A stretch of DNA of 64,000 nucleotides from an uncultured Sulfurimonas sp. (GCA_964548435.1 CAZJRG010000001.1:152-64151); one strand, 5' to 3'; numbered from the stretch's first letter, positions 805 through 61,164 are shown. Notes: generated by a model not told the origin, from the letters alone. Program-made: numbers and translations.

Positions 805-2235
805 ATGGGAAAATTTGTAAACGGTGTTGAAGATTTTTTTACATTTTGTAAAGACAATGATGTCCAATTTGTGGATTTTAGATTTACAGACATTAAAGGA
901 ACATGGCACCATGTAAGCTACAGAATGAGTGCTGTAAACGCAGGATACTTTGAGGGTGGGCTCCCATTTGATGGTTCTTCGATAGATGCTTGGCAGCCAA
1001 TCAACAAGTCAGATATGTTGCTCATCCCAGATGCGGGATCTGCGTTTTTAGATCCTTTCACAGCGGATCCAACCATCATCGTGTTTTGTGATGTTTATGA
1101 CATCTACAAAAAACAAGCCTATGAGAGATGTCCACGTTCAATCGCAAAAGCAGCACTCAAACATGCTGAGTCTTTAGGAATTGCAGACGCTGCATATTTT
1201 GGACCAGAAAATGAGTTTTTTATGTTTGACTCAGTAACTTTTGTTGACAACATGAACGAAGCAGGATACAAAATCGACTCTGAAGAGGGTGGATGGAACT
1301 CAAACAATCCATATCCAAACGGTTTTAACTCAGCACACAGACCAGGAACAAAAGGTGGTTACTTCCCAGTAGCTCCAACTGACAGTGGCGTTGATATTCG
1401 TGCTGAGATGATGCAAGTTTTAGAGCAAGTTGGTCTTGAAGTCGTTCTTGGTCACCACGAAGTTGCTCAAGGGCAACACGAAATCGGTATAGTATTCTCT
1501 GACATCATCGGTGCAGCTGACAATGTTCAAAAGTACAAATATGTTGTAAAAATGGTAGCACACCTCAATGGTAAAACGGCTACATTTATGCCAAAACCAC
1601 TCTTTGGTGACAATGGAAACGGTATGCACGTACACCAGTCTCTATGGAAAGATGGCAAAAACCTCTTCTATAAAGAAGGAAACTATGCAAACATCTCTGA
1701 GATGGGTCTTAACTACATCGGTGGTATCTTTAAACATGCTCGTTCAGTAGCTGCGTTTACAAACCCGACAACAAACTCATACAAAAGATTGCTTCCAGGG
1801 TTTGAGGCACCAAGTGTACTTACATACTCTATGCAAAACCGTTCTGCATCTTGCCGTATCCCTTATGGAGCTGGTGAGAAAGCAACACGTGTTGAGATGC
1901 GCTTCCCAGACTCAACAGCTTGTCCATACCTTGCGTTTGCTGTAATGCTTATGGCAGGTCTTGACGGTATCAAAAACAAAGAGATTCCAATTGGTCCAAT
2001 GGATGAAGACCTTTATGAACTCTCACTTGATGAGATCCGTGAAAAAGGTATTCCACAGATGCCACACACGCTTCGTGGTTCACTCGAAGCGCTTGTACGT
2101 GACTATGCTTATCTTCAGCCTGTATTTACAGATGAGTTCCTTAAAGCGTACAGACACTACAGATTTGAGCGTGATGTATGGCCAGATGAAGGTCGTCCAA
2201 CAGCTTATGAGTTTAAAACAACTTATCAGTGTTAA
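805..2235 (+). CDS. glnA: Glutamine synthetase, type I
   Basis: 476-aa ORF with an N-terminal [15 protein letters not shown] block and catalytic blocks [25 protein letters not shown] and [21 protein letters not shown] lies 7 nt upstream of the ATG. Confidence 0.95.
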
Positions 2236-2245
2236 TCTCTTTTTC

Positions 2246-2263
2246 GTGAGGCTTTTGCCTCAC
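2246..2263 (+). terminator. Hairpin downstream of glnA (GTGAGGC-TTTT-GCCTCAC), possible terminator
   Basis: Perfect 7-bp GC-rich stem with a 4-nt loop, 11 nt after the glnA stop. No clear U-tract follows, so the call is weak. Confidence 0.3.
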
Positions 2264-2401
2264 TACAACCCTCACAAACATCCTCTTTTCTTCTCCTAAA
2301 CGCAGCTCCAAACCAAAAATATAACGGCAAATTCGATATAATTGCGCCACTAATAACAAATGTAAGAGTGTGTTATTAAGTTCAAGTACAAAGGATTCAA
2401 A

Positions 2402-4060
2402 ATGAATCACATTCCAGAAGGAAAATATAGACCCTATCCAAAGATAGATTTGCCAAATAGACAATGGCCAGACAATACAATCACAAAAGCTCCTAAATGG
2501 TGTAGTGTTGACTTACGCGATGGAAACCAAGCGCTTATCAACCCTATGTCTATGGAGAAGAAACTTGAACTCTACACACTCTTACTCAAACTCGGATTTA
2601 AAGAGATAGAGGTGGGATTTCCCTCCGCTTCAAAGGTTGAGTTTGACTTTTTACGCCGTCTTGTCGATGACAATCTCATTCCAGATGATGTCACCATTCA
2701 AGTGCTTGTGCAAGCAAGAGAGCATCTTATAGAGAAGACTTTTGAAGCACTTCGCGGAGTGAAAAAAGCTACCGTGCATCTCTACAACTCAACATCCGTA
2801 GCGCAAAGAAAGATAGTTTTTGCTAAAACGCAAGAGGAGATCATAGCACTCGCGTTAGAGGGTGTTGCACTTGTCAAAAAGTATGAAGCACGCCACGATG
2901 GTGAGATATTTTTAGAGTATTCGCCTGAGAGCTTTACGGGAACAGAGCTAGAGTTTGCCGCTCGCATCTCAAACGCAGTGACTCATGCATGGGGGATTTC
3001 ACCTACAAGAAAGGTTATCATCAATCTTCCTGCAACTGTTGAGATGGCGACACCCAATATCTATGCTGATCAGATAGAGTGGATGTCGCGACACTTAGAG
3101 AACCGTGAAAATGTAATCATCTCTACACATACACACAACGACAGAGGCACATCTATAGCTGCGACTGAACTTGCACTTTTAGCAGGAGCTGACAGAGTTG
3201 AGGGGACGCTTTTAAGTAATGGCGAGCGAACTGGAAATGTAGACATCATTACTCTTGCCTTAAACATGACTACACAGGGTGTAGACTCGAAGCTAAACTT
3301 TACTGATGTCAGCGAAGTTTTAGATGTGGTGGAACGCTGTACAGAGATGCCAACACATCCTCGTCACCCTTATGTGGGAGAGCTTGTCTACACTGCGTTT
3401 TCAGGTTCACACCAAGACGCCATAAACAAAGGGCTTGCATACCAAAAAGCAAAAGAGGATAGTTTCTGGGAGGTTCCATACCTCCCAATAGATCCAAGCG
3501 ACGTAGGGCGTTCCTATGAGAGCATTATACGTATAAACTCGCAGTCTGGAAAAGGTGGAGTAGCCTATATCTTAGAGAAAAACTATGGTTATCAGCTTCC
3601 AAAAGCGATGCACCCAGAGGTTGGACAGATAGTTCAAGCACAAACAGACATTGTCGGACGCGAGCTGAGCAGTGATGAGATTTATACTATTTTTGAAGCA
3701 GCCTATTTTCATCCAAAAGAGCATGTACGTTTTGTAAACGCAATGCTCTCCTCAAAAGATGGAGTCTCTAACTGCACATTGACATATCTTCTTGAAGGTA
3801 AGGAGATAGTAGCCACTGCAAGCGGCAACGGTCCAATAGATGCCTGTAAACATGCACTTATGCAAGACTATAAAAACAGCTTCACTATCAAGTCCTATTC
3901 AGAGCACTCCTGTGGCGACTCTAGTGAAGCAAAAGCTGTGGCTTACATAGAGATAAGCACAAAAGAGACCTACTCGCGTTTTGGTGTAGGTGAAGACAAC
4001 AACATTGCCACCGCTTCCATAAAAGCGATGTTTTGTGCACTTAATCGCACTTTCTCTTAG
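2402..4060 (+). CDS. leuA: 2-isopropylmalate synthase (long LeuA form)
   Basis: 552-aa ORF with N-terminal RPYPKIDLPNRQWPD, the DLRDGNQA substrate motif, the HTHNDRGT metal-binding block and a C-terminal regulatory domain. AAGGA RBS upstream. Confidence 0.93.
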   Translation: MNHIPEGKYRPYPKIDLPNRQWPDNTITKAPKWCSVDLRDGNQALINPMSMEKKLELYTLLLKLGFKEIEVGFPSASKVEFDFLRRLVDDNLIPDDVTIQVLVQAREHLIEKTFEALRGVKKATVHLYNSTSVAQRKIVFAKTQEEIIALALEGVALVKKYEARHDGEIFLEYSPESFTGTELEFAARISNAVTHAWGISPTRKVIINLPATVEMATPNIYADQIEWMSRHLENRENVIISTHTHNDRGTSIAATELALLAGADRVEGTLLSNGERTGNVDIITLALNMTTQGVDSKLNFTDVSEVLDVVERCTEMPTHPRHPYVGELVYTAFSGSHQDAINKGLAYQKAKEDSFWEVPYLPIDPSDVGRSYESIIRINSQSGKGGVAYILEKNYGYQLPKAMHPEVGQIVQAQTDIVGRELSSDEIYTIFEAAYFHPKEHVRFVNAMLSSKDGVSNCTLTYLLEGKEIVATASGNGPIDACKHALMQDYKNSFTIKSYSEHSCGDSSEAKAVAYIEISTKETYSRFGVGEDNNIATASIKAMFCALNRTFS

Positions 4061-4074
4061 AATATTTTTATAAC

Positions 4075-4105
4075 AGAGGCGAAGATAAAACTATCTTCTA
4101 CCTCT
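4075..4105. terminator. Hairpin between convergent leuA and the helicase gene (AGAGGcGAAGATA-aaac-TATCTTCtaCCTCT)
   Basis: 7-bp plus 5-bp interrupted stem in the 30-nt convergent spacer, running into the last codons of the helicase gene. Possible bidirectional terminator. Confidence 0.35.
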
Positions 4106-5389
4106 TGAAGTGCTGGCTTTTGGAGCTGTTCCTTTAGAACTATCTCCTCTTGTTCTAGCAGCAGCCTTCTTATTTGCACCACCACCATGAGCTTTGTTTC
4201 TAGCTCCGCGGTTACCACCCATGTTTATGGGTTCTGCTTTTATTGATGGGTCTGGTTTGAAGCCTTTGAGCCACACTTTTGGAATCTCTTTTTTGATGAG
4301 CTTTTCAATGCCTCTCAAAAACTCATCCTCATCGACACAGACAAGCGAGATAGCCTCTCCCTCATTGCCCGCGCGCCCTGTTCGTCCGATGCGATGGACA
4401 TAATCCTCGCTCACATTTGGAAGATCAAAGTTTACTACATGAGGTAGCTGATCTATGTCGATACCACGAGCTGCTATATCTGTTGCCACAAGCACGCGCA
4501 CACTCCCCGACTTAAAATCTTCAAGTGCCTTCACCCTTGCATTTTGACTCTTGTTACCGTGAATGGCAGTGGCACTTATGCCATCTTTGCTCAGCTGCTC
4601 TGAGAGACGATTTGCTCCATGTTTTGTTCTAGTAAATACTAAAACCTGTTGCCAACTTCCCTCGTTTATGAGATGAGTCAGTAGCTCACGCTTGCGCTCT
4701 TTGTCTACATGGTAGACCGACTGTTTTACTATCTCACTTGAGGTATTTCTTCTTGCTACTTCAATGAGTGCGGGTGAACGCAAAAACTTCTCTGAGAGCT
4801 TCTTTATCTCATCAGAGTATGTCGCCGAGAAGAGTAGCGTTTGACGCTCTTTTGGTAGATGTGAAATCACTTTTTTGATGTCGTTTATAAAACCCATATC
4901 AAGCATTCGATCCGCTTCATCGAGTATGAGAAAATCTACTTTTTTAAGATCGATACTCTTTTGATTGATGTGATCAAGGAGCCGTCCAGGAGTAGCCACA
5001 ACGATGTCGACACCGCGTTTGAGTGCCACTACTTGAGGGTTCATCTTTACACCACCAAAAATGACAGCAGATTTAAAAGGTAGATGCGCTCCATAGAGCC
5101 GCACACTCTCTTCAACCTGCAGGGCAAGCTCACGTGTTGGTGTGAGTATAAGTGCTTGGAGTGTGTGGTGTGTGTTTTTCGTTTTCTCTCTTTTGCGTGA
5201 TAAAAGCTCTAAGAGTGGCAGTGTAAAACCAGCTGTTTTACCAGTTCCTGTTTGTGCTCCAGCTAAAATATCGCGTTTTTCTAAAATGACGGGTATAGCC
5301 TGCGTTTGAATGGGGGTGGGATTCTCATAGCCCTGTTCTTTTATGGCTTTTAAGAGATGGGCATTGAGCCCGAGTGTTGCAAATGACAT
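4091..5389 (-). CDS. DEAD-box ATP-dependent RNA helicase (RhlE/RhpA-like)
   Basis: Ordered motifs: Q motif (GYENPTPIQ), [31 protein letters not shown]. Basic Gly/Arg/Lys-rich C-terminal tail. Start moved from track ATG 5419 to ATG 5389 because AGGA sits 5 nt upstream of the latter. Confidence 0.92.
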
Positions 5390-5480: not shown

Positions 5481-6287
5481 ATGCAAGCAGAGACTCACAG
5501 CATAAAAGCCAACAACCATCGCATCTATCAATCCCCAACAGAGAAAAAAGCAGCCCTGCTCAATCTTCTCATCGAACAAAACGCAGCTTTACATATAGTG
5601 GTAGTTACCTCTAAAGATGCCCCAAGCATCGAAGAAAAAATTGCGAACAAAACCATACGAGTGATTGAAGATAGAGATCTTGTAAATGACAAAACACTCA
5701 GCTGTGAACTTCTCATCAGTTATGATCTACCCATAAAAGCCATAGTCTACATGGCTAGAATTGCCAAAGCAACTCAAAAAGCATTTTTGCTGCTTGATGA
5801 AGAGGAGCAAAAAGAGCTCCATGGCATTGAGATGCTTCTAGGTCGTGCCATTAAACAAGAGCGACTCGAAGGTTTTGAGTATAGCATCGCCCCAAAAATA
5901 AAACCTCTGTCAAATGCTCCAAAACAGCTCTCAAAAGAGCAGATCAAAGGTGAGGCGAAAAAACGTTACGATGCGAAAACACAAGAGAGACCAAAACGAG
6001 AGTTTAAAGAGAAAAAAGAGTTTAAAGAGAAGAAAGAGTTCAAATCAAAAAATGAACCAAACTCCAAAGACGCTAAACCAAAAGATCCTCGTTGGGAGAA
6101 GAAGAAAAAAGCTCCAAATAAATTTTTAGGCAAAGATGAAAATGGAAAAGCCATCTTCTCTGGCAAAGATGGAGCAAGAAATCATCGCTTCGATGGTACT
6201 CCAAAAGAGAAAGTACAAACTCCTCAAAACGCAGGCAGAAAGATAAACATCAAAGAGCTTAAACCAAAAGAACCAAAAGCAGATTAG
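5481..6287 (+). CDS. Stand-alone degenerate helicase C-terminal (RecA2-like) domain protein with Lys-rich repeat tail
   Basis: Residues ...[25 protein letters not shown]...[42 protein letters not shown] follow the DEAD-box C-domain pattern (INYDLP...[14 protein letters not shown]), but motif VI is degenerate (YMARIAKA). The C-terminal ~110 aa are Lys/Glu/Pro-rich with EFKEKK repeats. AGGA lies 7 nt upstream of ATG 5481. Confidence 0.7.
6000..6044 (+). repeat. In-frame 18-bp tandem repeat (2.5 copies) encoding EFKEKK
   Basis: GAGTTTAAAGAGAAAAAA / GAGTTTAAAGAGAAGAAA / GAGTTCAAA... read directly from the sequence. Confidence 0.85.
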
Positions 6288-8284
6288 AAGAGTAGCTCCT
6301 CCTCAGCTGCCTCCATCTGCTCTTCACGCGGAGGCTTAGAGATCTCGCTAAAGAACTCTTTTTTCCCCCCAATTTGTACCTCAACGATCCCCTCAGGCGC
6401 GACAAACTCACGCTGAATCTGCGGATAAAACTTCAAAATATTTTCATAATATCTGGCAAATGCAGGTCCTGCAACGGTAGCCCCAGTTTCGCGTCTATAC
6501 ATCGGAGTGTTGTCATCATTACCAAACCAAACCGCTGTGATGATGGTTGGTGAGTAGCCCACAAACCATCCATCGATGTTGTTGTTGGTCGTTCCTGTTT
6601 TTCCTGCGATCTCTACTCCTTTGACCGCAGCACGTCTTCCCGTTCCTTGATCGACGACATCTTTTAAGATGGTCGTCATGATGTAAGCCTGCGTTGGTAG
6701 ACTCGTCATCTTAGACTCACTCTGACTCTCATAAATCACTCTGCCGTTTTGCTCTATAGAGCTTATGAGATTTGTATGGAGTTGCTGCTCGCCATTGTTG
6801 GAAAAGGAAGTGTAAAACTTCGCAAGTTCCAGCGGTGACATCGACATCGTTCCAAGTGAGATGGAGAGATTGTTTGGAATATCTTCTATGCCAAACTTCT
6901 CAAGCTCACCAATGAGCTGTGAGAGTCCTATGTCATTGACAAGATTTATGGTGGCAAGATTTCGCGAATGCACCAGAGCTTCACGCAGCGAGAGAATGCC
7001 TTTGTAGTTTTTCTCATAGTTCTTTGGCTGCCACTTCTTAGCCTCGCCATCGCTTTGATACTCGTAAGTCTTTGCAATATCGACAAGCTGTGATGCACCC
7101 GAAAAACCAAAGTCAATGGCAACCTGATAGATAAAAGGCTTAAACGCAGAACCAGGCTGGCGTTTTCCCTGTGTTGCACGGTTAAAAGAGCTCTCAGCAT
7201 AATCTACACTCCCAACGAGTGCCAAAATATTTCCCGTGGCAGAATCGAGCGAAACCAAAGCACCGTTTAGTTTGCTCGGGTCGATGTCGTGCGCACTCAA
7301 AAGTGTGGTACTCCTGTGTTTGCCTTCATCTTTTTTATACTGCTCTATGCGTTTGAGCGAGAGATCGTAAGCGTGTTTAAGTGACTCTTGGGCGGCAGTT
7401 TGCAGCTTCATATCTATGGTCGTATGAACCTCATAGCCACCTGTTTTAAAATCCTCAATGCCTAACTCTGCAAATTTACGCATCACCTCGTCAACTACAA
7501 ATGGCGCTTGATTTTGCGTGAGTGTTTCGTTATAGACTTTTGGATTCTCTTTGAGTGCGGCTTCATATGTCGCTTCATCTATCCAACCCAAAACATGCAT
7601 TCTCTCTATAACGCGGTTAGCTCTTCCCATAGATATCTCATAGTTTCTTGTAGGCGCATAGATGCTTGGTGCTTTTGGAAGTCCTACGAGTATGGCTATC
7701 TCTTTGAGTGTCAAGTCGGCTAGCTTTTTGTGAAAATAGCCATCAGCAGCCGTTTGCAACCCATAATAACCATGTCCGTAGTAGATCTCGTTGAAGTAGC
7801 GTTCAAGTATCTGCTCTTTGGTGAGCACCTGTTCTACTTTGATGGCGTAAATCGCCTCTTTTATCTTTCTTGAGAGTTTCTTCTCTCGCGTGAGCAGGAC
7901 ATTTTTAACAAGCTGCTGCGTTATGGTACTTGCTCCCTCGACCGCTTTTCCAGCACGCAACACTTTTATGGCAGCACGAAAAATCGCCTCCACATTGACA
8001 CCAGGGTGTTCAAAAAATGTAGTATCTTCTATGGCTAAAAGTGCTTCGACTGCACGCGGGGGAATCTCCTCAAAAGGGACATAATAACGGTGCGTTTCAT
8101 TAAAAACATTGGCAATCTTGACACCATTTTTGTCGTAAATCTTACTCGTAATTTGCGGCTTATAATCTACAAGAACAGAGAAGTCATAGTTAAACTTAGT
8201 GTAGTAGTAAGCAAAGAGCCCAAAAGGTGCGATAAGCATTGCAAGTAGCAACAATACAAAGAGCGTTTTTATAAATTTTTTCAT
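6284..8284 (-). CDS. mrcA: Penicillin-binding protein 1A (bifunctional glycosyltransferase/transpeptidase)
   Basis: N-terminal TM anchor. GT51 motifs EDTTFFEHPGVN and GASTITQQL. Transpeptidase motifs SAFKP (SxxK), SRN and KTGTT. Confidence 0.92.
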   Translation of the reverse strand: MKKFIKTLFVLLLLAMLIAPFGLFAYYYTKFNYDFSVLVDYKPQITSKIYDKNGVKIANVFNETHRYYVPFEEIPPRAVEALLAIEDTTFFEHPGVNVEAIFRAAIKVLRAGKAVEGASTITQQLVKNVLLTREKKLSRKIKEAIYAIKVEQVLTKEQILERYFNEIYYGHGYYGLQTAADGYFHKKLADLTLKEIAILVGLPKAPSIYAPTRNYEISMGRANRVIERMHVLGWIDEATYEAALKENPKVYNETLTQNQAPFVVDEVMRKFAELGIEDFKTGGYEVHTTIDMKLQTAAQESLKHAYDLSLKRIEQYKKDEGKHRSTTLLSAHDIDPSKLNGALVSLDSATGNILALVGSVDYAESSFNRATQGKRQPGSAFKPFIYQVAIDFGFSGASQLVDIAKTYEYQSDGEAKKWQPKNYEKNYKGILSLREALVHSRNLATINLVNDIGLSQLIGELEKFGIEDIPNNLSISLGTMSMSPLELAKFYTSFSNNGEQQLHTNLISSIEQNGRVIYESQSESKMTSLPTQAYIMTTILKDVVDQGTGRRAAVKGVEIAGKTGTTNNNIDGWFVGYSPTIITAVWFGNDDNTPMYRRETGATVAGPAFARYYENILKFYPQIQREFVAPEGIVEVQIGGKKEFFSEISKPPREEQMEAAEEELLF

Positions 8285-11014: not shown

Positions 11015-11567
11015 CTCTATCCTTTACGAAGTTTTGCAGTACCTCAACACAAAGCCCCATCGCTGTGCTCTCATACCCTCTTACCTCTTTGATATAGGGC
11101 TTACAAAATCCCTCTACCATACATGCACCCGCCTTGCCGCGCCACTCACCACTTGCCAAATAGCACTCTAGATCTTCTAAATCAAATGGATTAAAAATAT
11201 AATCCGTCTGCGAAATATCGACTATTTTTCGATTTTTACTCTCATAAATCATCGCAGTAATGATACTTGTCATACTTGCACTCTGTGTAAGTAAAATATT
11301 ACGAGCATCACTCTCGCTCTTTGCCTTACGCAGTATCTGATTTTGACTACTCACGACTGTATCAGCCACAAGCAGAGGCATATCTTCACAGCCAAACGCA
11401 GCTCTGTTTGCGTTATATTTTCCTAAAGTTGCTTGGTAAACAAAGTTTTTTGCAGATGTGGCAATGATGCTATCCTCATCGAACCCTACACTCTCTTGCA
11501 CAAATGCGATACCTGCATTTTGTAGCAGAAGTGCACGAGTCTCTGAGGCAGAAGCGAGTCGTAACAC
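10998..11567 (-). CDS. maf: Maf-like nucleoside triphosphate pyrophosphatase
   Basis: 189 aa. LASASETRALLL N-terminus and overall Maf-like length and pattern. GTG start. 17-nt overlap with the GGDEF gene. Confidence 0.75.
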   Translation of the reverse strand: MLRLASASETRALLLQNAGIAFVQESVGFDEDSIIATSAKNFVYQATLGKYNANRAAFGCEDMPLLVADTVVSSQNQILRKAKSESDARNILLTQSASMTSIITAMIYESKNRKIVDISQTDYIFNPFDLEDLECYLASGEWRGKAGACMVEGFCKPYIKEVRGYESTAMGLCVEVLQNFVKDRDASCV

Positions 11568-51600: not shown

Positions 51601-53126
51601 GTGTGACTCTTATATCGCCACCACCGCACCATGATATCTACTCCATAGAGGATTTAGCACAACTCATATTTGACCTTAAGCAGGCAAATCCAAGAGCAAA
51701 AGTGGCTGTAAAACTTGTATCTTCTGCAGGTGTTGGTACGATCGCTTCTGGTGTGGCAAAGGCTTATGCTGATAAAATCATTATTTCAGGTGGTGATGGT
51801 GGAACAGGTGCAGCACCAATAGGCTCTATACGTTTCGCGGGTAATCCATGGGAACTAGGACTCATAGAAGCTCATAACTCTCTAAAAGTAAACAACCTCA
51901 GAGGTCAAGTAACTCTAGAAACAGATGGTGGTTTAAAAACTGGTTTAGATGTTGTCAAAGCAGCAATTATGGGAGCTGAAGAGTATGCGTTTGGAACAGG
52001 TGCACTCGTTATTGTAGGGTGTATTATGCTGCGTATCTGCCATCTAAACACTTGTGCTGTGGGTGTTGCAACTCAAGATGAAAAACTTCGTGCAAAATTC
52101 AATGGAAATGTTGAAAAAGTAGTCAATTACTTTACACTTCTTGGAGAAGATGTAAGAGAGATTCTTGCAGCATTAGGCTACAAATCACTTGAAGAGATAA
52201 TTGGTCAAAATCATCTTCTTAAAGTTATTGATGATGAGTTTGCGAAGAAGTTCGATTTTGAATCACTACTCTATAAGATCGATGGCATAAACACATGCCA
52301 AGTACCTTTTAATGAACCATACGATCAAAATGAGTATGAAAAAGCTATCATAGAGGAGCTTTTACCAACCATAGAAGATCCAAGCAAGCCTATAGTTCTT
52401 GAAAAAGAGATCTCAAATCTCAACAGAAGCTTTGGTGCAAGAATCTCTGGTGAGATTGCTAAACGCTATGGAAACGCAGGTCTTCCTGATGGTACTATTA
52501 CACTTAATATGAAAGGTGTTGCTGGACAGTCTCTTGGAGCATTTATGTCTAAAGGGATTAACATTAATCTCTATGGTGCAGCCAATGATTATATTGGTAA
52601 GGGTATGAATGGTGGAAGTATTGTCATTACTGCTGAAAAAAGTGGTCAAGAGTTTGCACTTGGAGGAAACACTTGTCTTTATGGTGCAACAGGTGGACGA
52701 CTCTATATAAATGGTCAAGTAGGGGAGCGTTTTGCTGTAAGAAACTCTGGTGCAATAACAATTGTTGAAGGTACTGGTGATCATCCATGTGAGTATATGA
52801 CAGGTGGAACTGTAGTAATCTTAGGAAAAACAGGTGATAACTTTGGAGCTGGTATGACGGGTGGAAAAGCATTTGTTTATGATGAAGATAGAACATTTTA
52901 TGAAAAAATTAATATTGAACTCGTGGAAGCTATCAGGCTAGATAATGATGAGTTTGATGCAGATATGTTTGAGTTGAAAAATTTACTTAAAGATTTTGTT
53001 GCAAAAACTGGAAGTCAAAAAGCACAAGACATCTTACATAGCTTCAGAAGTGAGGTAAGAAAAATTTGGATGATCATTCCAAGAGGTGCAAGACCTACTC
53101 TTGAAGCGAGCAAAAGAGGAGAGTAA
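48693..53126 (+). CDS. gltB: Glutamate synthase large subunit
   Basis: 1477 aa. Ntn-amidotransferase Cys after a short propeptide (KDNCGFGLLA), FMN/synthase-domain blocks (SNSGEGGE, ISPPPHHDIYSIEDLAQLI, GGTGAAP) and a C-terminal GXGXG beta-helix domain. No small-subunit gene follows. Confidence 0.95.
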   Translation: MGCNLDLLTSFKDNCGFGLLASIDNKPTHKNLEDAITALSRMMHRGAIAADGKTGDGSGLLLSMPKSFFEKELANKGIDLPEQYAVAMVFSTNESDFDVIQEICSQNDLKIIYTREVPTDKDALGVQALSMLPNIKQLFVVPVSPIATERLDALVYLSRKEIESKLKSDNTFYIPSFSTSVVSYKGLVMPTHIKQFYKDLASEDFKISFCLFHQRFSTNTLPQWKLAQPFRMIAHNGEINSVTANRLNVKAKMAGAKSGIFSDEEMSKLMDVIQDGMSDSASLDNFMEFLQINGVDFFKAARSLIPAPWHNDHAMDSKLRAFYEYASTCFEPWDGPAAVSMTNGRYIGCVIDRNGLRPAKYIRTTDNRMLISSEYGVLELPEEEIAERGRLQSGEMIGIDLKYGKVLKNRDINDHLKSMHNYDKWLSENMLYLQEHAITAEVEKCRFSKSEMEAKQRYFNYTQEVTKQVIFPMLKEGKETTGSMGDDTPLAAFSKEQRNFTDFFKQKFAQVTNPPIDPIREKIVMSLNTGFGEIRNILVDDPEHAKRLKTVLPIMSAEKFSILKEFGDASSSKYDPSYKYGQYSTAYKDDLKSSLQKLIEKVVVDVRENGVRTIIFDDRELDENHKVIPMLMVIGAASQKLLDENLRHLVSMVAVTGEVFDPHSAACMIGYGAAAIFPYLLYYVVEQLAEGTEYAEDMAFNLRRLRRAMGAGVSKVMSKMGISTLASYRNSRLFDIIGLSDEIVHDCFAGSRSLLSGLSYQDIEERLGINHARAYTTAFEGSDKALYKGGFYKYKKDEEYHDMSKPMIGLIQDAATTGSKEDWNRLKDAVNTRDKKFIRDFFELKSDRGPISIDEVEPLSAIFKRFSTAAMSMGSISQEAHETLAAAMNKIGAKSNSGEGGEATERLKSDRNSKIKQVASGRFGVTPEYLQSAEELQIKVAQGAKPGEGGQLPGSKVSPLIATLRYTKPGVTLISPPPHHDIYSIEDLAQLIFDLKQANPRAKVAVKLVSSAGVGTIASGVAKAYADKIIISGGDGGTGAAPIGSIRFAGNPWELGLIEAHNSLKVNNLRGQVTLETDGGLKTGLDVVKAAIMGAEEYAFGTGALVIVGCIMLRICHLNTCAVGVATQDEKLRAKFNGNVEKVVNYFTLLGEDVREILAALGYKSLEEIIGQNHLLKVIDDEFAKKFDFESLLYKIDGINTCQVPFNEPYDQNEYEKAIIEELLPTIEDPSKPIVLEKEISNLNRSFGARISGEIAKRYGNAGLPDGTITLNMKGVAGQSLGAFMSKGININLYGAANDYIGKGMNGGSIVITAEKSGQEFALGGNTCLYGATGGRLYINGQVGERFAVRNSGAITIVEGTGDHPCEYMTGGTVVILGKTGDNFGAGMTGGKAFVYDEDRTFYEKINIELVEAIRLDNDEFDADMFELKNLLKDFVAKTGSQKAQDILHSFRSEVRKIWMIIPRGARPTLEASKRGE

Positions 53127-53260: not shown

Positions 53261-54103
53261 TTGAACCTACTCAATCTTTTTCATAAAACCTTTGACAATA
53301 AACAGCCAGTAAAAGCCGAGGCTTCTTCACACTGGATAAAATGTACCTCATGTCACTCTACAATGTACTATAAAGAGGTTGAAAATCAGAATTATGTCTG
53401 TCCAAAATGCGGGTTTCATATTCGTATTGGAGTTAAAGAGAGAATTGCACTTTTAGCTGATGAGGGAACTTTTATAGAGCATGATGCATCTTTGGCACCC
53501 GTAGATCCTCTTAAGTTTGTTGATTCAAAATCGTATGTAAAGCGCATAGAAGAGGGTTTTGCTAAAACAGGGAGAAAATCTTCAGTCGTAGCTGGTAGCT
53601 GTAAAATGAATGGAGTTAGTGCACAAGTCGTTATTTTTGATTTTGCTTTTTTAGGTGGTTCACTTGGTTCTGTAGAGGGTGAAAAGATTGTAAGAGCTGT
53701 TAATCGTGCTATTGAAAATAGAGAAGGGCTTGTTATACTCTCCGCTTCAGGCGGTGCACGTATGCAAGAGTCGACATTTTCTCTTTTACAGATGAGTAAA
53801 ACTTCTGCTGCGTTGGCACAACTTGCAAAACACAAACTTCCTTACATCTCCGTATTGACAGACCCTACAATGGGTGGCGTTTCTGCCTCTTTTGCTACAC
53901 TTGGAGATATTATCATCGCTGAGCCTGGGGCACTTGTAGGTTTTGCTGGTGCGCGTGTTATCGAACAAACGATAGGTTCTGCTCTACCTGATGGTTTTCA
54001 AAGGGCAGAATTTTTACTTGAAAAAGGTTCAATAGATATGATAGTGAACCGAAATGAGCTTAAAAAGACTCTCGCAGATCTTTTAGTGATGTTTAAAGTT
54101 TAG
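53261..54103 (+). CDS. accD: Acetyl-CoA carboxylase carboxyltransferase beta subunit
   Basis: Zinc ribbon CTSCHSTMYYKEVENQNYVCPKCG, then the carboxyltransferase core FLGGSLGSVEGEKI...SGGARMQE. Start proposed at TTG 53261 (AAGGA 8 nt upstream). The track ORF starts at 53213. Confidence 0.9.
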   Translation: MNLLNLFHKTFDNKQPVKAEASSHWIKCTSCHSTMYYKEVENQNYVCPKCGFHIRIGVKERIALLADEGTFIEHDASLAPVDPLKFVDSKSYVKRIEEGFAKTGRKSSVVAGSCKMNGVSAQVVIFDFAFLGGSLGSVEGEKIVRAVNRAIENREGLVILSASGGARMQESTFSLLQMSKTSAALAQLAKHKLPYISVLTDPTMGGVSASFATLGDIIIAEPGALVGFAGARVIEQTIGSALPDGFQRAEFLLEKGSIDMIVNRNELKKTLADLLVMFKV

Positions 54104-55131: not shown

Positions 55132-55488
55132 GTGTCAGTGCAAACAAGCGAGTTAAATTATTTTAAAGATATCTTATTAAGTAGAAAAAAGCAAATCATA
55201 AAAAATATAGACGGTGTAAATAATGAGCTTAGTCAACTCAGTGGTCTTGAGCTAAATGATGAAGGTGACCATGCTTCAGCAAATAGTAATTCAATGGTTG
55301 AAAGTGCCATTGTTCAGCAACAGGCTAAAGAGCTGGCTGAGATAGAAATAGCACTTGGCAAGATCGCTCATGGTGGTTATGGCGTTTGTGATATGTGTGA
55401 AGATGACATAGGTTTTCAGAGGTTAAAAGTAAAACCGCATGCCACTTACTGTATAGATTGCAGAGAAATAGTAGAAAAAACAAAATAA
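55132..55488 (+). CDS. DksA/TraR-family C4 zinc-finger protein
   Basis: 118 aa. Coiled-coil N-terminus and CDMCEDDIGFQRLKVKPHATYCIDC. GTG start with an AAGGA RBS. Confidence 0.8.
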   Translation: MSVQTSELNYFKDILLSRKKQIIKNIDGVNNELSQLSGLELNDEGDHASANSNSMVESAIVQQQAKELAEIEIALGKIAHGGYGVCDMCEDDIGFQRLKVKPHATYCIDCREIVEKTK

Positions 55489-55501: not shown

Positions 55502-56533
55502 ATGTATATGAAGCGATACACAGTCGGCGCACTTCTATTTATGGTTTTGGTTGGTGGTTATGTCTTTGCATATATCACACAAGAGACAATGAGCTTAGAG
55601 TTCTTTGGTGTTTTGTCTCCTCAACTTTCAATAGCTCTTTGGATTGTGATACCACTATTTGTTTTATACGTCGCAACGATTCTACATATTTCATTTCACT
55701 CATTTTTAAGCAGTTTGAAACTTCGAAAATATGAAAAAGATTTTCAAAACATTATAGATGCTATTGCTGATGCATATATGGGGAAAAAAGATAAAGTTTA
55801 TACTTTCAAAACAGAACGCTATAAACTTATGGGTGCTTTACTAGAAAATACACACCTTCTACCATCAACAAATCTTGAGATAAAAACAAGTAGTGAAAAA
55901 CTCAATACTATTTTTGCACTTCTTAAAAAGATTCATGCAGGCGAGGTTGTAGATCTTAAAAAATATGCTCTGAAAATGGATAATGAATTAGTGATTCAAA
56001 ATGAGCGAAATAGATATAAAAAGGGTGACATTACATCTGAAGAGGTTTTGGCAAACTCTACGAAATATGCAGAAATTTTTTGCAAAGAGGTTTATGTGAA
56101 CTTTGTTCAAAAAGCACCTTTGCATGCTATTGAAAAGTATAAAATGTATCTCACAAAAGAGTCGCTCTACGCCATTTTAGCGCGTGTAAATGCAGATAAT
56201 TACACACTTGAAATTCCAAACGCCACTATCATGTCTTTTTTAGAGAAGCTTGAATTGACACGTGAGGATTACATTAAACTTTCAACAGTATTGGCTGAAG
56301 GTGGTATGATTCCTGAACAACGTATCAAACTTTTTGAGATGCTCTCTGATGAGAATGATGAAATCATGGATGCATATCTTTATACGCTTTTTGATCTTGA
56401 GATGCTCTCTCCAGCCAATGCAATTTTAGATAATTCTCAACCAAGCGAGTATCAAAACTTTAAAGCATATCGTGCACTTAAAGAGAATAATCACAATTTC
56501 AACATCTCTCTATTTGTGCGACCTTCATGCTAA
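55502..56533 (+). CDS. Membrane protein with LapA-like two-TM N-terminus and helical cytoplasmic domain, function unknown
   Basis: 343 aa. Two N-terminal hydrophobic helices (VGALLFMVLVGGYVFAYI; LSIALWIVIPLFVLYVATIL) followed by a helix-rich soluble part. Confidence 0.55.
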   Translation: MYMKRYTVGALLFMVLVGGYVFAYITQETMSLEFFGVLSPQLSIALWIVIPLFVLYVATILHISFHSFLSSLKLRKYEKDFQNIIDAIADAYMGKKDKVYTFKTERYKLMGALLENTHLLPSTNLEIKTSSEKLNTIFALLKKIHAGEVVDLKKYALKMDNELVIQNERNRYKKGDITSEEVLANSTKYAEIFCKEVYVNFVQKAPLHAIEKYKMYLTKESLYAILARVNADNYTLEIPNATIMSFLEKLELTREDYIKLSTVLAEGGMIPEQRIKLFEMLSDENDEIMDAYLYTLFDLEMLSPANAILDNSQPSEYQNFKAYRALKENNHNFNISLFVRPSC

Positions 56534-57480
56534 AAAATCTCTCTTTTGACAACCCGCTTTATGTCCTTGCGCCTCTTGCTGGATATACAGATCTTCCCTT
56601 TAGAAGTGTTGTCAAAAAGTTTGGAGCAGACCTCACTGTAAGTGAGATGCTTAGTTCAAATGCGCTCGCATTTGGTTCTGAAAAAACACTTCACATGATA
56701 GAAAAATCACCACTTGAAGATCCCTACTCTGTTCAGATAGCTGGAGCGGAAGTGGGTGTTGTTCGTGATGCAGTAGAGGTTCTTAATGCTCAAGAGGGAA
56801 TAGATATCATCGATTTGAATTGTGGTTGTCCTGTGCCAAAAATTGTAGGACATGGAAGCGGAAGTTCACTGCTTCTAAACCTACCTCTAATGGGAGAGAT
56901 AATCAAAACAATTAAAGAGACCTCAAATAAACAACTCACAAGTGTTAAAGTGCGTTTAGGCTTTGAAGAAAAAAACCATATAGATATTGCAAAAATGGTT
57001 GAAGACAGTGGAGCTGATTTTATTGCAGTACACGGAAGAACAAGAGTTGGTAAGTTTAAATCTGCGGTTGATTACGATGCAATAAAAGAGATTAAAAACG
57101 CAGTCTCTATTCCTGTCATAGCAAATGGTGATATTGACACATACGAAAAAGCGAAGTGGGTTTTGGAGTATACTGGAGCTGATGGCATTATGATCGGTCG
57201 AGGTGCAGTTGGAGCTCCTTGGATTTTTCATCAGTTGCGCACAGGAAGTTCACACATAGATCAATCTGTGAAGCATGAGATTATTATGGAGCACTATGAC
57301 AAAATGATAGAGTTTTATGGTGATCATGGTGCTGTAATGTTTCGAAAGCATACCCATACATATTGTAAAGGTTTTAGGGGTGCATCAAAACTAAGAAATG
57401 ATGTAAACAATATAACTGATCCAAGAGAATACCGCGCACTTCTTGATGATTTTTTTAAAAATGCTGAGTTAACTCTTTAA
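56527..57480 (+). CDS. dusB: tRNA-dihydrouridine synthase
   Basis: APLAGYTDLPFRSVVKKFGADLTVSEM, DLNCGCP, VKVRLG and HGRTR motifs. Confidence 0.9.
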   Translation: MLKNLSFDNPLYVLAPLAGYTDLPFRSVVKKFGADLTVSEMLSSNALAFGSEKTLHMIEKSPLEDPYSVQIAGAEVGVVRDAVEVLNAQEGIDIIDLNCGCPVPKIVGHGSGSSLLLNLPLMGEIIKTIKETSNKQLTSVKVRLGFEEKNHIDIAKMVEDSGADFIAVHGRTRVGKFKSAVDYDAIKEIKNAVSIPVIANGDIDTYEKAKWVLEYTGADGIMIGRGAVGAPWIFHQLRTGSSHIDQSVKHEIIMEHYDKMIEFYGDHGAVMFRKHTHTYCKGFRGASKLRNDVNNITDPREYRALLDDFFKNAELTL

Positions 57481-58643: not shown

Positions 58644-59570
58644 TTAAAGATCCTCTCCGTACGCTATAGAGGCTGCGCGCTCTTTGTATGCTTGAAGTGG
58701 TTCTTTTTTACTAAGTGCAGTGTGTTCTCCCAGAAATTCTTCAAGTTGTTCATGGCGTTTTTGAAGTATATCTTGAAACTCTTCTTGCGTTTTAGGTCTG
58801 TTTTCTAAAAATTTGTCCAATAAAATATTGCTTTTACCCATGAGTACAAGATAGCTATGTGGTCCAAAATCAAGCATTACGACACTTGTGTCTTGTGAGA
58901 GTGCTTTTTGAAAACGTATGGATACTTGATGCGTTTCGTCACTCATGAACTCTTTAAGCGGGCTTTGCACCTCTTCTTGAGCTGCTCTTGTATTTTGAAA
59001 CTCATCCATTTTAAAAAGCCATGGATTTGGAGCTTTTGATTTTGGACTAGATACCATTTTTCTTTTAAGATAGAAAAGAGTAAATATAGCGAGTAGTAAA
59101 AAACCTACCACAATGTAGTAGCTTGTAGAGAGTGCATCTTCTTGTTTAGTAGGTAAGTTAGACAAGAGATTGTTTTCTTCACCCTCTTCAACACTCATAT
59201 CAGCTGATGTTTGTGATTGCGCCTTAAAACGCAATCGGAGTCCATAACCATCTGTGGTTCTTGATGCAACGAGTGCTATGTTTGTTGTGGCAGTTGCGAT
59301 TATCTGTGTGTGATCTGCAAGCGGTGTGATAGAGAGTGATTGCAAAAATGGGGAGTTTACTTTTTTCATTTTAGGTGAAGTGATACTTGCACCCTCTAGT
59401 TTAATGATGATTTTAGACTTTGCACCAGTTTGTGTGATCTTGCCGCTATAGGGTGTGTCAAAAGTGATCATAATGTCGGCTCTATCAGTTCTATCATAAA
59501 TGTTGTAGCTGAGAATTTTTGATGCGAAAAGTGAAAGCGGGAGTAATAAGCTAATAAAAAGAATTTTCAT
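58644..59570 (-). CDS. fliO: Long-form FliO-like flagellar export protein (periplasmic domain + TM + cytoplasmic domain)
   Basis: Signal peptide MKILFISLLLPLSLFA, a ~150-aa beta-rich periplasmic domain, TM YYIVVGFLLLAIFTLFYL and a ~130-aa cytoplasmic tail. Immediately downstream of fliN with no spacer, as for the long FliO described in Helicobacter pylori. Confidence 0.6.
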   Translation of the reverse strand: MKILFISLLLPLSLFASKILSYNIYDRTDRADIMITFDTPYSGKITQTGAKSKIIIKLEGASITSPKMKKVNSPFLQSLSITPLADHTQIIATATTNIALVASRTTDGYGLRLRFKAQSQTSADMSVEEGEENNLLSNLPTKQEDALSTSYYIVVGFLLLAIFTLFYLKRKMVSSPKSKAPNPWLFKMDEFQNTRAAQEEVQSPLKEFMSDETHQVSIRFQKALSQDTSVVMLDFGPHSYLVLMGKSNILLDKFLENRPKTQEEFQDILQKRHEQLEEFLGEHTALSKKEPLQAYKERAASIAYGEDL

Positions 59571-59912
59571 CTATAGTCTCTCTTTGGAAAGGTGATATAA
59601 AACTGCACTAGAATCAAGGACTTCGTTGATACGGATGGCAAGATTTTTCTCATACACCATTACCTCGCCCTTACCTAAGATACGTCCGTTTACATAGGAT
59701 TCTACTGATTCACCAGCTGGTTTTTTCAAGTCTATGATTGAACCTTTTTCAAGTTTTAGAATCTCGCGAAGCGTAAGCTGCGTTTCACCTAGGTCTGCGA
59801 CAAACTCGACTTCCATATCAAGAATTCCAGAGTAGTCCATCCATGAAAGCTCTTTATCGGCGTCAAAAGGCTTTTCGTTTTTAGAGTAGCTAAAGTGTTT
59901 TGGCTTAGGCAT
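59571..59912 (-). CDS. fliN: Flagellar motor switch protein FliN
   Basis: 113 aa. SpoA domain LTLREILKLEKGSIIDLKKPAGESVESYVNGRILGKGEVMVYEKNLAIRINEV. Confidence 0.9.
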   Translation of the reverse strand: MPKPKHFSYSKNEKPFDADKELSWMDYSGILDMEVEFVADLGETQLTLREILKLEKGSIIDLKKPAGESVESYVNGRILGKGEVMVYEKNLAIRINEVLDSSAVLYHLSKERL

Positions 59913-60333: not shown

Positions 60334-60360
60334 GCCAACCCTTTTGTTGAATAATCAAAG

Positions 60361-60366
60361 ATTATA
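60361..60366 (-). promoter_or_regulatory. TATAAT -10 box (minus strand) for the cheX-fliN-fliO operon
   Basis: Top strand ATTATA, 27 nt upstream of ATG 60333. AAGGG RBS. Confidence 0.3.
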
Positions 60367-60399
60367 CGTAAAGCATTCTCAAATCAAAATTAAATGCTG

Positions 60400-60408
60400 T
60401 GCTATAAT
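60400..60408 (+). promoter_or_regulatory. Extended -10 promoter (TGcTATAAT) for the TauE/SafE gene
   Basis: Exact TGnTATAAT, 24 nt upstream of ATG 60433. Confidence 0.4.
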
Positions 60409-60432
60409 TTCACAAAAATTTGATGGATATGC

Positions 60433-61164
60433 ATGATAGAACTCCTTGGTGTCGGTATTGTAGTGGGTGCTCTGTCTGGTTTTTTCGGAATTGGTGGAGG
60501 AACTGTCTTGGTTCCCATTTTACTCCTCTTGGGGTATGATACCAAGGTTGCCATAGGCATCTCTGTCATCCAGATGGTGTTTGGTTCTATCTTTGGGAGT
60601 TATCTCAATCAGAAAAAAGGAACACTCGACACATCCATGGTGCTCTATATAGGTGCTGGCGGGTTTATGGGTGGTTTGATGAGTGGCTACATGAGTGCAC
60701 TCTTTTCAAATCAAACGCTTGAGCTTATCTTTTTTGCTTTTGCTGTTTTCGCGCTTGCGAGACTCTTTATGAAAACGCAGGAACATCAAGAGGAGCGCCA
60801 AGTCCATAAACTACTTCTCTTTGGTATAGGTGTGCCACTTGGAGCACTGAGTATGGTGATAGGTGTTGGAGGGAGTATTTTACTCGTACCTATCTTGGTC
60901 GGTTTTTTGCATGTACCACTCAAAAAAGCGATCTCGGCAGGACTCTTTTTTGTGGTTTTTTCTTCCATTTCTGGGCTTATATCTCATTATCTCCATGGCG
61001 TTTTAGAGATAAAGAGCGGTGTCATCATTGGTATTGCATCACTTTTAGGCGTCTATGTGGGCATAATCTTAAAAGACATTGTTGGAGCGAGGTTACAAAA
61101 AAATCTTCTTGTAGCTTTTTACCTCCTTATAGTAATATATTTGGCTAAAAGAGTATTTTTATAA
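60433..61164 (+). CDS. TauE/SafE-family (DUF81) anion exporter membrane protein
   Basis: 243 aa, ~7-8 TM. Duplicated GFFGIGGGTVLVPILLLLG / GVGGSILLVPILVGFL motif. Confidence 0.85.
   Translation: MIELLGVGIVVGALSGFFGIGGGTVLVPILLLLGYDTKVAIGISVIQMVFGSIFGSYLNQKKGTLDTSMVLYIGAGGFMGGLMSGYMSALFSNQTLELIFFAFAVFALARLFMKTQEHQEERQVHKLLLFGIGVPLGALSMVIGVGGSILLVPILVGFLHVPLKKAISAGLFFVVFSSISGLISHYLHGVLEIKSGVIIGIASLLGVYVGIILKDIVGARLQKNLLVAFYLLIVIYLAKRVFL

Follow-up and report, generated by a model that had tools for sequence, protein, structure and literature searches.

A hyper-abundant, strand-symmetric octamer in a Sulfurimonas-like chromosome as a possible uptake-type self-recognition word

Why should one eight-nucleotide word recur about once per kilobase, in both orientations, along a stretch of bacterial chromosome? 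The stretch in question (the window) is 64 kb of DNA from an uncultured Sulfurimonas sp. (GCA_964548435.1, CAZJRG010000001.1:152-64151) with a G+C content of 41.1%, and the word is AAACGCAG, which reads CTGCGTTT on the complementary strand. The best relatives of the AlaS protein encoded in the window come from Sulfurimonas genomes and metagenome-assembled genomes (MAGs), with 75-84% amino-acid identity, and the DNA identity to all relatives is 68-75%, with no close relative in the collection; judged by these matches, the window is a piece of a Sulfurimonas-like (Sulfurimonadaceae, Campylobacterota) chromosome. The reading that we rank first, and hold tentatively, is that AAACGCAG may be an uptake-type self-recognition word kept by biased uptake and recombination, that is, by molecular drive. 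The word is independent of codon and codon-pair usage, symmetric in strand and frame and sharply bounded at 8 nt; it recurs in other species and is replaced by different words in yet others.

A k-mer census of both strands of the window found 37 copies of AAACGCAG on the top strand and 29 of CTGCGTTT, giving 66 copies or 1.03 per kb and placing the pair first among all 8-mers, above the A-rich coding words. The positions that the initial annotation had listed are all correct and none had been overlooked. Its claim of a large excess over chance also holds: dinucleotide-preserving shuffles contained 2.43 ± 1.59 copies and never more than 7, so that the excess is 27-fold, and Markov models of orders 0, 1, 2 and 3 expect 1.7, 2.4, 2.4 and 6.9 copies, respectively. 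A maximal-order Markov model expects 67 copies, but this null was discarded as circular; it is uninformative because the 7-mers and 6-mers on which it is built are mostly made up of motif copies, which account for 66 each of the 102 occurrences of AAACGCA, the 78 of AACGCAG and the 118 of AACGCA.

Could the excess be a by-product of coding? A set of 52 non-overlapping long open reading frames (ORFs) covers 91.5% of the window and holds 64 of the 66 copies (97%), the two intergenic copies, at 2298 and 33710, being those already annotated as such. On this explanation the word would follow from codons, from codon pairs, from recurrent peptides (Asn-Ala, Thr-Gln and Ala-Phe) or from base or oligonucleotide composition, and it can draw on the near-perfect maximal-order Markov expectation (67 versus 66, from the circular null), on unequal use of the reading frames and on a weak positive correlation between local GC content and motif density (rho 0.51, p = 0.04). 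The coding-aware nulls contradict it. Synonymous-codon shuffling within each gene, which keeps every protein and each gene's codon usage, gives 6.2 ± 2.4 copies against the 64 observed in ORFs (10-fold, z = 24), and shuffling of codon order gives 2.6 ± 1.7. A codon-pair-preserving Euler shuffle (Wilson-type, n = 300) gives 21.4 ± 4.0 with a maximum of 36; the pairs that the motif itself contributes are among those kept, which makes this a generous null. The enrichment thus persists where the initial annotation had reasoned that a codon-pair artefact would vanish, and it does so although both the synonymous and the codon-pair nulls already hold the motif's own codons.

The distribution over strands and frames also differs from that of a coding word. 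The copies in ORFs are divided equally between sense (32) and antisense (32) and use five of the six frames, with 24 in antisense frame 1, 16 in sense frame 2, and 12 in sense frame 1; antisense frame 2, which would need Cys-Val, is the sole empty frame. The main frames are xxA-AAC-GCA-G and xAA-ACG-CAG and, on the other strand, xCT-GCG-TTT; the frame assignments made earlier are correct. The word CAAAAGAG, which ranks second among G/C-containing 8-mers both in the window and in most of the Sulfurimonas loci described below, is a true coding word and serves as an internal control: it has 45 copies in the window, with 37 of 44 in the sense orientation and 31 in the single frame xCA-AAA-GAG (Lys-Glu). 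Finally, although the proteins are broadly similar (mean residue identity 0.75), the orthologous genes of motif-free congeners have 36-fold fewer copies of AAACGCAG, at a pooled density of 0.023 per kb over 49 motif-free orthologous loci compared with 0.82 per kb over 12 motif-bearing sources. A coding or compositional artefact is thereby essentially excluded, and we give it almost no weight.

The word itself is sharply defined. An alignment of the 66 copies has zero information outside the 8 positions. The AAACGC hexamer occurs 199 times in the window (3.1 per kb), followed by AG in 66 cases, CA in 28, GA in 16, TA in 15 and AA in 14. When one-off variants were compared between the 12 motif-bearing sources, pooled, and the 49 motif-free congeneric loci, those at position 8 were enriched 3.0-8.2-fold and those at position 7 1.7-4.4-fold; at position 1, C and T were enriched 2.2-2.7-fold and G stood at 0.5, while variants at positions 2-6 were mostly close to 1 (range 0.3-2.2). 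With the enrichment of variants confined to positions 1, 7 and 8, the word has a strict AACGC centre and softer ends. It is asymmetric and non-palindromic, with 50% GC and an A-rich 5' half. The 15-nt palindrome that had been reported at 17673-17687 is present as a near-palindrome, CTGCGTTAAACGCAG, composed of one exact and one one-off copy in inverted order; it lies within ORF 17505-18920(-) and is no terminator. Neither of the two intergenic copies lies within a hairpin.

The high copy number could suggest that the copies are remnants of a dispersed repeat or mobile element, of the kind of repetitive extragenic palindromes or miniature inverted-repeat transposable elements, that contains the word. 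Such an element does exist among the relatives: the 13.7 kb locus L012 bears a longer dispersed repeat around AGTTAC (consensus ∼AGAtACAGTTACAAaTGT), with 11 core sites over both strands that are conserved over at least 18 nt; this one, in contrast to the 8-mer words, is a genuine repeat element. For AAACGCAG, the lack of any flank information means that it is not a repeat element, and a repeat or mobile-element origin was rejected on this ground; moreover, 64 of the 66 copies sit inside housekeeping ORFs in several frames. Viral contigs that carry the word show a different pattern: among the matches listed with two nearby copies, multi-copy AAACGCAG always forms single-orientation tandem arrays with a period of 17-63 nt. 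We regard the repeat explanation as the least credible of all those considered. The IMG/VR contigs concerned (L102, L116, L128, L193 and L166) have periods of ∼17-21 or 63 nt and look like iterons or coding repeats; these arrays are unrelated to the dispersed genomic word and uninformative on phage depletion.

The gaps between copies fit an exponential distribution (coefficient of variation 1.03, Kolmogorov-Smirnov p = 0.81), and when copies are placed at random the largest gap reaches at least 4624 nt in 40% of cases (P = 0.40). The uneven spread that had been noted is therefore not significant, and since the gaps are Poisson and the motif-poor stretches hold core genes (accD, thiE, rlmH and uvrA) and not islands, patchiness or island depletion was dropped as a signal.

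Is the word peculiar to this chromosome? We compared the window with 80 alaS-centred loci, one per Sulfurimonas species, totalling ∼1.3 Mb (L001-L080). AAACGCAG is hyper-abundant in 11 of the 80 sampled species, at 0.4-1.5 per kb, and is the top or a near-top word in each (L026, L032, L009, L010, L042, L041, L014, L023, L027, L013 and L045). The richest relative, L026, has 34 copies in 22.6 kb. Compared with synonymous shuffles, L026 has 32 copies versus 2.7, L032 has 14 versus 0.85, L009 has 13 versus 0.9 and L014 has 8 versus 0.8, and the frame preferences in L026, L009 and L032 are the same as in the window. Recent gene flow between the species that share the motif was considered and rejected: the relatives have just 68-75% DNA identity, with no near-identical tracts. 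The alaS homologue of L026 (MAG STC_53; L026:10001-12613) contains two in-frame stops, which could reflect an assembly error, a pseudogene or recoding.

Other species have other words. L001, the closest relative of the window by AlaS, is dominated by AAACGCCA (11 versus 0.9 under the synonymous shuffle), L033 and L057 carry CTCACGCA(A/G) (12 versus 0.6-1.1), and (T)CCACATGCC is the word of L080, L078 and L018, in which CACATGCC reaches 16 versus 1.1, 10 versus 0.6 and 9 versus 0.75, respectively. CCACATGC, which overlaps CACATGCC, is found at 8 versus 1.2 in L038 and at 0.76 per kb in L015. Weaker words in further species are T-TACATGTA-G, TACATGTAG, AGATGCWA and AGATCT; AGATCT, AGATGCWA and ACATGTAG are only moderately above their null. 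A family-wise scan of the top words of 60 loci, all 10 kb or longer, gave a background continuum of ∼6-17, in which the highest scores belong to coding-type words, and eight clear outliers at 18 or above, all of which come from four strand-balanced words. Two candidates for additional words were dropped because codon and peptide usage explains them and they are strand-biased: TCATGACA in L073, L076 and L058 (11 versus 7.7) and ATGATGCA in L006 (14 versus 6.8). With lower certainty, the 38 AGATCT sites (a BglII-type palindrome) in the 22.5 kb of L072, where codon shuffles expect 13, and CTACATCC(CA) in L022 and L020 (10 versus 0.9) may be further species-specific words.

AAACGCAG, AAACGCCA, TCACGCAG, AGATGCW and CACATGCC have an A-Y-G-C centre in common, and L042 bears both AAACGCAG and TCACGCAG; the common centre is suggestive of 'dialects', although it is not proof of them. 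The window likewise holds a second word, as AAACGCCA occurs at 28 sites balanced over the strands (11/17), with 27 against 3.7 under the synonymous null (7-fold, z = 14). This could be either a second, coexisting 'dialect' or the relic of a word switch. The words were mapped on a one-gene tree (AlaS), and one gene cannot settle the species tree; as mapped, their distribution is less suggestive of slow vertical drift than of a limited set of words being re-used or exchanged.

How do copies arise? A codon alignment of alaS from 62 species provides examples. In the window and in seven other species, the invariant AlaS peptide RLRFDF is spelled AGA CTG CGT TTT, a spelling that includes the word, whereas most species use CTT AGA TTT or a similar spelling; the motif-forming CTG CGT TTT is found in five of 11 motif-bearing species and in three of 50 others (p = 0.003). 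At two other alaS copies, the window reads AAA/CAA-ACG-CAG in place of the AAA-ACA-GAA (E to Q) or AAA-TCA-AAT (S-N to T-Q) of its relatives. Thus, some copies come from synonymous choice in an invariant peptide, an origin that the initial annotation had proposed to look for at orthologous sites, and others coincide with amino-acid replacements. For the 16 copies with enough orthologues, the conservation of the motif codons equals that of other codons (0.748 in both cases). Because synonymous sites are saturated between these species, and the word yet persists at mostly different positions, its persistence implies that copies are continually gained and lost under a standing drive or selection.

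Which drive might this be? One candidate lies in chromosome maintenance: AAACGCAG could be an intracellular recombination or segregation site, such as a Chi-like regulator of AddAB, an FtsK-orienting polar sequence (KOPS) or a frequent binding site for a protein of the nucleoid or of segregation. The over-representation of the 8-mer within core housekeeping genes would suit such a role, and Chi sites are short words (5-8 nt) of comparable abundance. The orientation of the copies does not. The GC skew of the window reverses at ∼26 kb, with its cumulative minimum at 24-28 kb, and forward and reverse copies number 22/14 before this switch and 15/15 beyond it (37/29 overall), so that co-orientation is absent. 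The relatives' loci, which are 8-23 kb long and probably each lie within one replichore, are balanced as well: AAACGCAG is found at 16/18 in L026 and 6/7 in L009, the word of L033 at 7/6, and L039 and L080 have 16/13 and 10/7. No orientation bias was found in the window, on either side of the switch or in ∼30 motif-locus combinations (samples of 8-64 kb), which bears out the absence of skew first noted in the window; the strand skew that had been named as pointing to a Chi or KOPS role does not appear in the 64 kb or in the relatives' loci. In addition, the word varies between congeneric species, while Chi recognition is conserved over whole families. We consider this explanation improbable, even though the HIP1 word of cyanobacteria may act partly like Chi (preprint 10.1101/2024.09.10.611283). 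As to the skew switch, gene orientation is mostly minus over 4-33.6 kb and mostly plus over 33.8-58.6 kb, and no cluster of DnaA-box-like 9-mers was found in the AT-rich spacers at 25100-25516 and 31870-32239 near the switch, which may mark an origin or only an effect of gene orientation.

A drive of another kind, which we rank second and consider possible but not likely, would resemble that proposed for the highly iterated palindromes (HIPs) of cyanobacteria, HIP1 among them. AAACGCAG or its AACGC centre would be the target of a resident, probably orphan, DNA methyltransferase, and methylation-dependent mismatch or very-short-patch repair would turn near-cognate into cognate sites with no role in uptake; the methyltransferases of different species would then give different words. 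The pattern of variants suits this, as the deviations from AAACGCAG are concentrated at positions 1, 7 and 8, and so do the switch of words between closely placed species, their recurrence in separate clades and the restriction-type palindromes within other words (AGATCT, ACATGT and also GATGC, the reverse complement of which is GCATC). On the other hand, AAACGCAG is asymmetric whereas HIPs are palindromes, and the selective depletion of C-to-T or G-to-A neighbours that a very-short-patch model predicts is absent, with ratios relative to motif-free species of 1.2 for AAATGCAG, 0.8 for AAACGTAG, 2.2 for AAACACAG and 8.2 for AAACGCAA. An enrichment of 10- to 36-fold also exceeds the known repair-driven biases, which are few-fold. 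The function scan of the window's ORFs found no DNA-methyltransferase or Vsr-like gene in the 64 kb, nor one resembling ctsM; this is a weak point, as the window is probably a small part of the chromosome. Methylation-dependent repair has been proposed as the drive behind the cyanobacterial HIPs, where Elhai's genomes each have one hyper-abundant octamer, with alternates that go with cognate methyltransferases and deviations at the outer positions (PMC4390886). HIP1 in methylated form may also boost transformation (10.1101/2024.09.10.611283). Should the uptake machinery read the word when methylated, the two models would coincide in part.

The uptake-type reading would work as follows. A protein would read AAACGCAG as an orientation-independent 'self' word of the lineage, and a drive at the level of DNA, and not coding needs, would hold it at about one copy per kb. 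The reader would belong to the machinery of natural transformation, which would favour word-bearing fragments, and the word might be read bare or methylated, as RAATTY is in Campylobacter jejuni. Homologous recombination of these fragments would spread copies faster than mutation erases them. From such spread by uptake and recombination it would follow that new copies settle where the protein tolerates them, mainly as xxA-AAC-GCA-G, xAA-ACG-CAG and, on the other strand, xCT-GCG-TTT. We rank this reading first on account of its signature, a sharp, asymmetric word at about one per kb with strand and frame symmetry, synonymous creation and species alternatives, which by analogy is that published for DUS and USS, and of a precedent in the same phylum, where C. 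jejuni relies on a short methylated motif to tell DNA apart at the uptake step (PMC10046745). The density and frame behaviour of DUS and USS as published match those of AAACGCAG (bioRxiv 10.1101/2025.10.24.684340).

Several observations weigh against it. The species that carry AAACGCAG fall into no fewer than four distinct clades of the AlaS neighbour-joining tree, with bearers of other words in between, and a horizontally exchanged specificity module, for example a methyltransferase, fits this recurrence no less well than a receptor that drifts slowly. The words of other species include palindromic restriction-type sites (AGATCT and TACATGTA) that look more HIP-like than DUS-like. DUS cluster as inverted pairs in intergenic terminators; AAACGCAG, by contrast, is 97% coding and shows no association with terminators or inverted pairs, the only close inverted pair (17673-17687) being within an ORF. 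Its spacing is simply Poisson. Window-specific residues are not significantly enriched at motif codons (6/52 versus 379/4027, p = 0.63), and no competence, pilin or DNA-methyltransferase gene is recognizable among the 53 ORFs of the window (48 of the 52 complete ORFs were covered by the function scan; uvrA was named from its translation). Of the DUS/USS-type reading made initially, every sequence property linked to it stands, and neither of the computed signs named as arguing against it, a loss of enrichment under the codon-pair null or a strand skew, was found; the agreement is only partial because uptake is a prediction, no competence or DNA-methyltransferase gene was recognized in the window and a HIP1-like drive fits the same signature.

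The literature adds little. We found no published reports of these words, or of uptake sequences in Sulfurimonas or Campylobacterota, in the open-access literature, and a 2022 paper notes a complete lack of knowledge on competence among Campylobacterota from vents. The methylome literature on Sulfurimonas offered nothing relevant apart from the 5-methylcytosine motifs of S. denitrificans (CGCG, CCNGG, GATC and CCGG), which are unrelated to the hyper-abundant words.

More broadly, and with somewhat less assurance than for AAACGCAG itself, Sulfurimonas may possess a DNA-uptake or self-recognition system with a small repertoire of 8-10 nt words (AAACGCAG, AAACGCCA, CTCACGCA, CCACATGCC, TACATGTAG and others) that are swapped between species, probably by way of a horizontally exchanged specificity module. 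To our knowledge, experimentally proven uptake sequences are confined to two families of host-associated Proteobacteria. If the uptake-type reading is true, uptake-word systems would for the first time be known beyond the Neisseriaceae and Pasteurellaceae, and from free-living chemolithoautotrophs, and the words would set barriers and channels of gene flow in a genus that ranks among the most abundant at redox interfaces in the sea and the subsurface. When a mechanism biases the DNA that a bacterium retains, the clearest footprint it leaves in the sequence is a genome-wide 'self' word; such words would here be extended to a new phylum and an ecologically dominant genus. The footprint would predict natural transformability and discrimination of self DNA in vent and sediment bacteria that are uncultured or hard to grow, and an explicit 8-mer to place in DNA constructs could make the genetics of vent Campylobacterota practical. 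The dozens of independent word switches within the genus are a natural experiment in which gene-word association could reveal the receptor or methyltransferase and set drive against selection. The word could also serve as a marker for binning contigs and for spotting foreign DNA in Sulfurimonas metagenomes.

The individual copies of AAACGCAG, located as exact matches in the k-mer census and assigned by ORF overlap, are distributed as follows. The first ORF concerned, 805-2235(+), holds 936..943 (+), 1040..1047 (-) and 1751..1758 (-), and is followed by the intergenic copy at 2298..2305 (+). Copies 2971..2978 (+) and 3393..3400 (-) lie in ORF 2402-4060(+), 5300..5307 (-) in ORF 4091-5419(-), 5579..5586 (+) and 6227..6234 (+) in ORF 5433-6287(+), 7142..7149 (+) in ORF 6284-8284(-), 9205..9212 (-) and 9625..9632 (+) in ORF 8970-10064(-) and 11394..11401 (+) in ORF 10998-11567(-). 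The alaS ORF, 12051-14669(-), has copies at 12432..12439 (-), 12533..12540 (-), 12753..12760 (-) and 12853..12860 (+), the last being the CTG CGT TTT of the invariant RLRFDF. Five copies fall in ORF 14714-16810(+), at 14745..14752 (+), 14980..14987 (+), 15154..15161 (+), 15678..15685 (-) and 15886..15893 (+). ORF 17505-18920(-) contains 17611..17618 (+), 17680..17687 (+), which is part of the near-palindrome at 17673..17687 (unstranded), and 18164..18171 (-); ORF 18948-20690(-) contains 19328..19335 (-), 20038..20045 (+), 20602..20609 (+) and 20625..20632 (+); ORF 20706-23000(-) contains 21576..21583 (+) and 22893..22900 (+); and ORF 22997-24667(-) contains 23013..23020 (+), 23051..23058 (+), 23274..23281 (-) and 24478..24485 (-).

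Beyond these, ORF 25517-26323(+) carries 25923..25930 (-) and 26283..26290 (-), ORF 26320-27633(-) carries 27126..27133 (-), ORF 28286-29725(-) carries 28491..28498 (-) and 29298..29305 (+), and ORF 32240-33658(-) carries 32810..32817 (+) and 33053..33060 (+), after which comes the second intergenic copy, 33710..33717 (-). Single copies occur at 33921..33928 (-) in ORF 33773-35281(+), at 36184..36191 (-) in ORF 36132-36905(+) and at 41075..41082 (+) in ORF 40246-41295(+), with a pair at 37422..37429 (-) and 37449..37456 (-) in ORF 36902-37642(+). The densest cluster of the window is in an MscS-like channel gene, 41292-42935(+), which has seven copies in 1.6 kb. We place there 41335..41342 (-), 41431..41438 (+), 41590..41597 (+), 41926..41933 (+), 42034..42041 (+) and 42221..42228 (+). 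Four copies of this gene are in the frame AA-ACG-CAG (Thr-Gln), in an N-terminal half that is rich in Gln, Lys and Thr and resembles a coiled coil. The remaining copies are 43527..43534 (+) in ORF 42936-44186(+), 44213..44220 (-) and 44354..44361 (+) in ORF 44149-45825(+), 46011..46018 (-) in ORF 45812-46333(+), 46468..46475 (-) in ORF 46356-46889(+), 47728..47735 (+) in ORF 46876-47958(-), 48254..48261 (-) in the recO-like ORF 47964-48581(-), 50164..50171 (-) and 52472..52479 (+) in ORF 48693-53126(+), 57096..57103 (+) in ORF 56527-57480(+), 59778..59785 (-) in ORF 59571-59912(-) and 60773..60780 (+) in ORF 60433-61164(+).

The sites of the secondary word AAACGCCA, again exact matches with ORF overlap, fall in many of the same genes. 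One is at 7158..7165 (-) in ORF 6284-8284(-) and three are in the alaS ORF 12051-14669(-), at 12575..12582 (+), 12986..12993 (-) and 13458..13465 (+); pairs are found at 15310..15317 (-) and 15348..15355 (-) in ORF 14714-16810(+), at 19990..19997 (-) and 20179..20186 (+) in ORF 18948-20690(-), at 21141..21148 (+) and 21753..21760 (+) in ORF 20706-23000(-), and at 25627..25634 (+) and 26172..26179 (-) in ORF 25517-26323(+). Site 23827..23834 (+) is in ORF 22997-24667(-), 27396..27403 (-) in ORF 26320-27633(-), 29386..29393 (+) in ORF 28286-29725(-), 29796..29803 (-) in ORF 29709-30932(-) and 32852..32859 (+) in ORF 32240-33658(-). Further along, 37951..37958 (+) and 37974..37981 (-) share ORF 37652-38764(+), and 43214..43221 (-) and 44057..44064 (-) share ORF 42936-44186(+). 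The others are 50785..50792 (-) in ORF 48693-53126(+), 53875..53882 (-) in ORF 53213-54103(+), 55380..55387 (-) in ORF 55132-55488(+), 56218..56225 (+) in ORF 55502-56533(+), 58753..58760 (-) in ORF 58644-59570(-), 60996..61003 (-) in ORF 60433-61164(+) and 63774..63781 (-) in the uvrA-like ORF that runs off the window end. This last ORF, 61165-64000(+), contains 12 AAACGC hexamers with varied continuations (GCGAG, GCTAG and others) and no exact copy of AAACGCAG.

The genes of the window are ordinary chromosomal housekeeping genes: glnA, leuA, rhlE, a class A penicillin-binding protein gene, bioF, maf, alaS, a tex-like gene, glmU, motAB, fliP, a trmA-like gene, aroB, gltB, accD, thiE, rlmH, dksA, a dusB-like gene, fliN, recO and uvrA. 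The only module of a mobile type is a RelE/ParE-like toxin and ribbon-helix-helix antitoxin pair at 16838-17426(-), between housekeeping genes; it holds no copy of AAACGCAG and, at 589 bp, is too short for this to be interpreted. No tRNA or Rfam RNA was found in the window. Among the relatives, the palindrome RAATTY occurs at ∼0.8-1.2 per kb in L001, L006, L023, L022 and L026 and at 3.5-4 per kb in L063, L067, L078 and L080, a spread that hints at species-specific avoidance or retention.

With which known system does the word compare best? Chi (RecBCD/AddAB) and KOPS (FtsK) sites are likewise short words over-represented in core genes, and are read by a DNA-processing protein, but they are co-oriented with replication and conserved over families, whereas AAACGCAG is strand-balanced and species-variable and shows no polarity. 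The methylated RAATTY of C. jejuni, which depends on CtsM, is from the same phylum and offers a case in which a short motif decides what is 'self' at uptake (PMC10046745); it also provides a precedent by which a swapped methyltransferase could change the word. RAATTY is, however, a degenerate 6-mer palindrome that is frequent in AT-rich DNA, acts via methylation and has no reported excess, in contrast to a specific 8-mer enriched 10-36-fold.

HIP1 (GCGATCGC) is closer in its behaviour. It is an octamer present at about one per kb or more, in any frame, with lineage alternates and deviants at the outer positions (PMC4390886), and the one-nucleotide deviants of AAACGCAG are also found at its outer positions; HIP1 has a possible link to transformation efficiency when methylated (10.1101/2024.09.10.611283). 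The HIPs are GC-rich palindromes with identified orphan methyltransferases and HIP1 has a quasi-periodic spacing, while AAACGCAG is asymmetric and A-rich, is no palindrome and is spaced at random in the Poisson sense. We know of no methyltransferase for AAACGCAG, and the function of HIP1 is itself still debated.

The DUS of the Neisseriaceae (GCCGTCTGAA and its dialects, read by the minor pilin ComP) are hyper-abundant, asymmetric and orientation-independent, as is AAACGCAG, and related species have related or different words, the 'dialects'. At 1.03 per kb, 37/29 in orientation and in 27-fold (dinucleotide shuffles) or 10-fold (synonymous shuffles) excess, AAACGCAG lies within what is seen for DUS, which occur at about one per kb in both orientations with observed-to-expected ratios of 10-60 (bioRxiv 10.1101/2025.10.24.684340). 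It differs in lacking the CTG core, in not aligning to any DUS dialect and in being at most 8 nt long, where DUS have 10-12 nt; the Sulfurimonas words also recur in separate AlaS clades instead of tracking the tree. We know of no ComP-type receptor for the Campylobacterota.

The USS of the Pasteurellaceae (9-nt core AAGTGCGGT/ACAAGCGGT) differ in sequence and come from another phylum: AAACGCAG has 8 nt without AT-rich flanks, so that the core-and-flank structure of USS is not seen, and no fraction of it lies in terminators or inverted pairs. In other respects the two are alike. Both occur about once per kb in both orientations, are mostly intragenic (64 of 66 copies in ORFs for AAACGCAG), use several frames (here five of six) with a bias towards tolerated peptides, have a strict centre with softer ends, are made by point substitutions that include synonymous ones and vary by lineage. 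Thus, by its sequence and defining features AAACGCAG is a member of none of the DUS, USS or HIP1 families, but by analogy its behaviour is similar to theirs.

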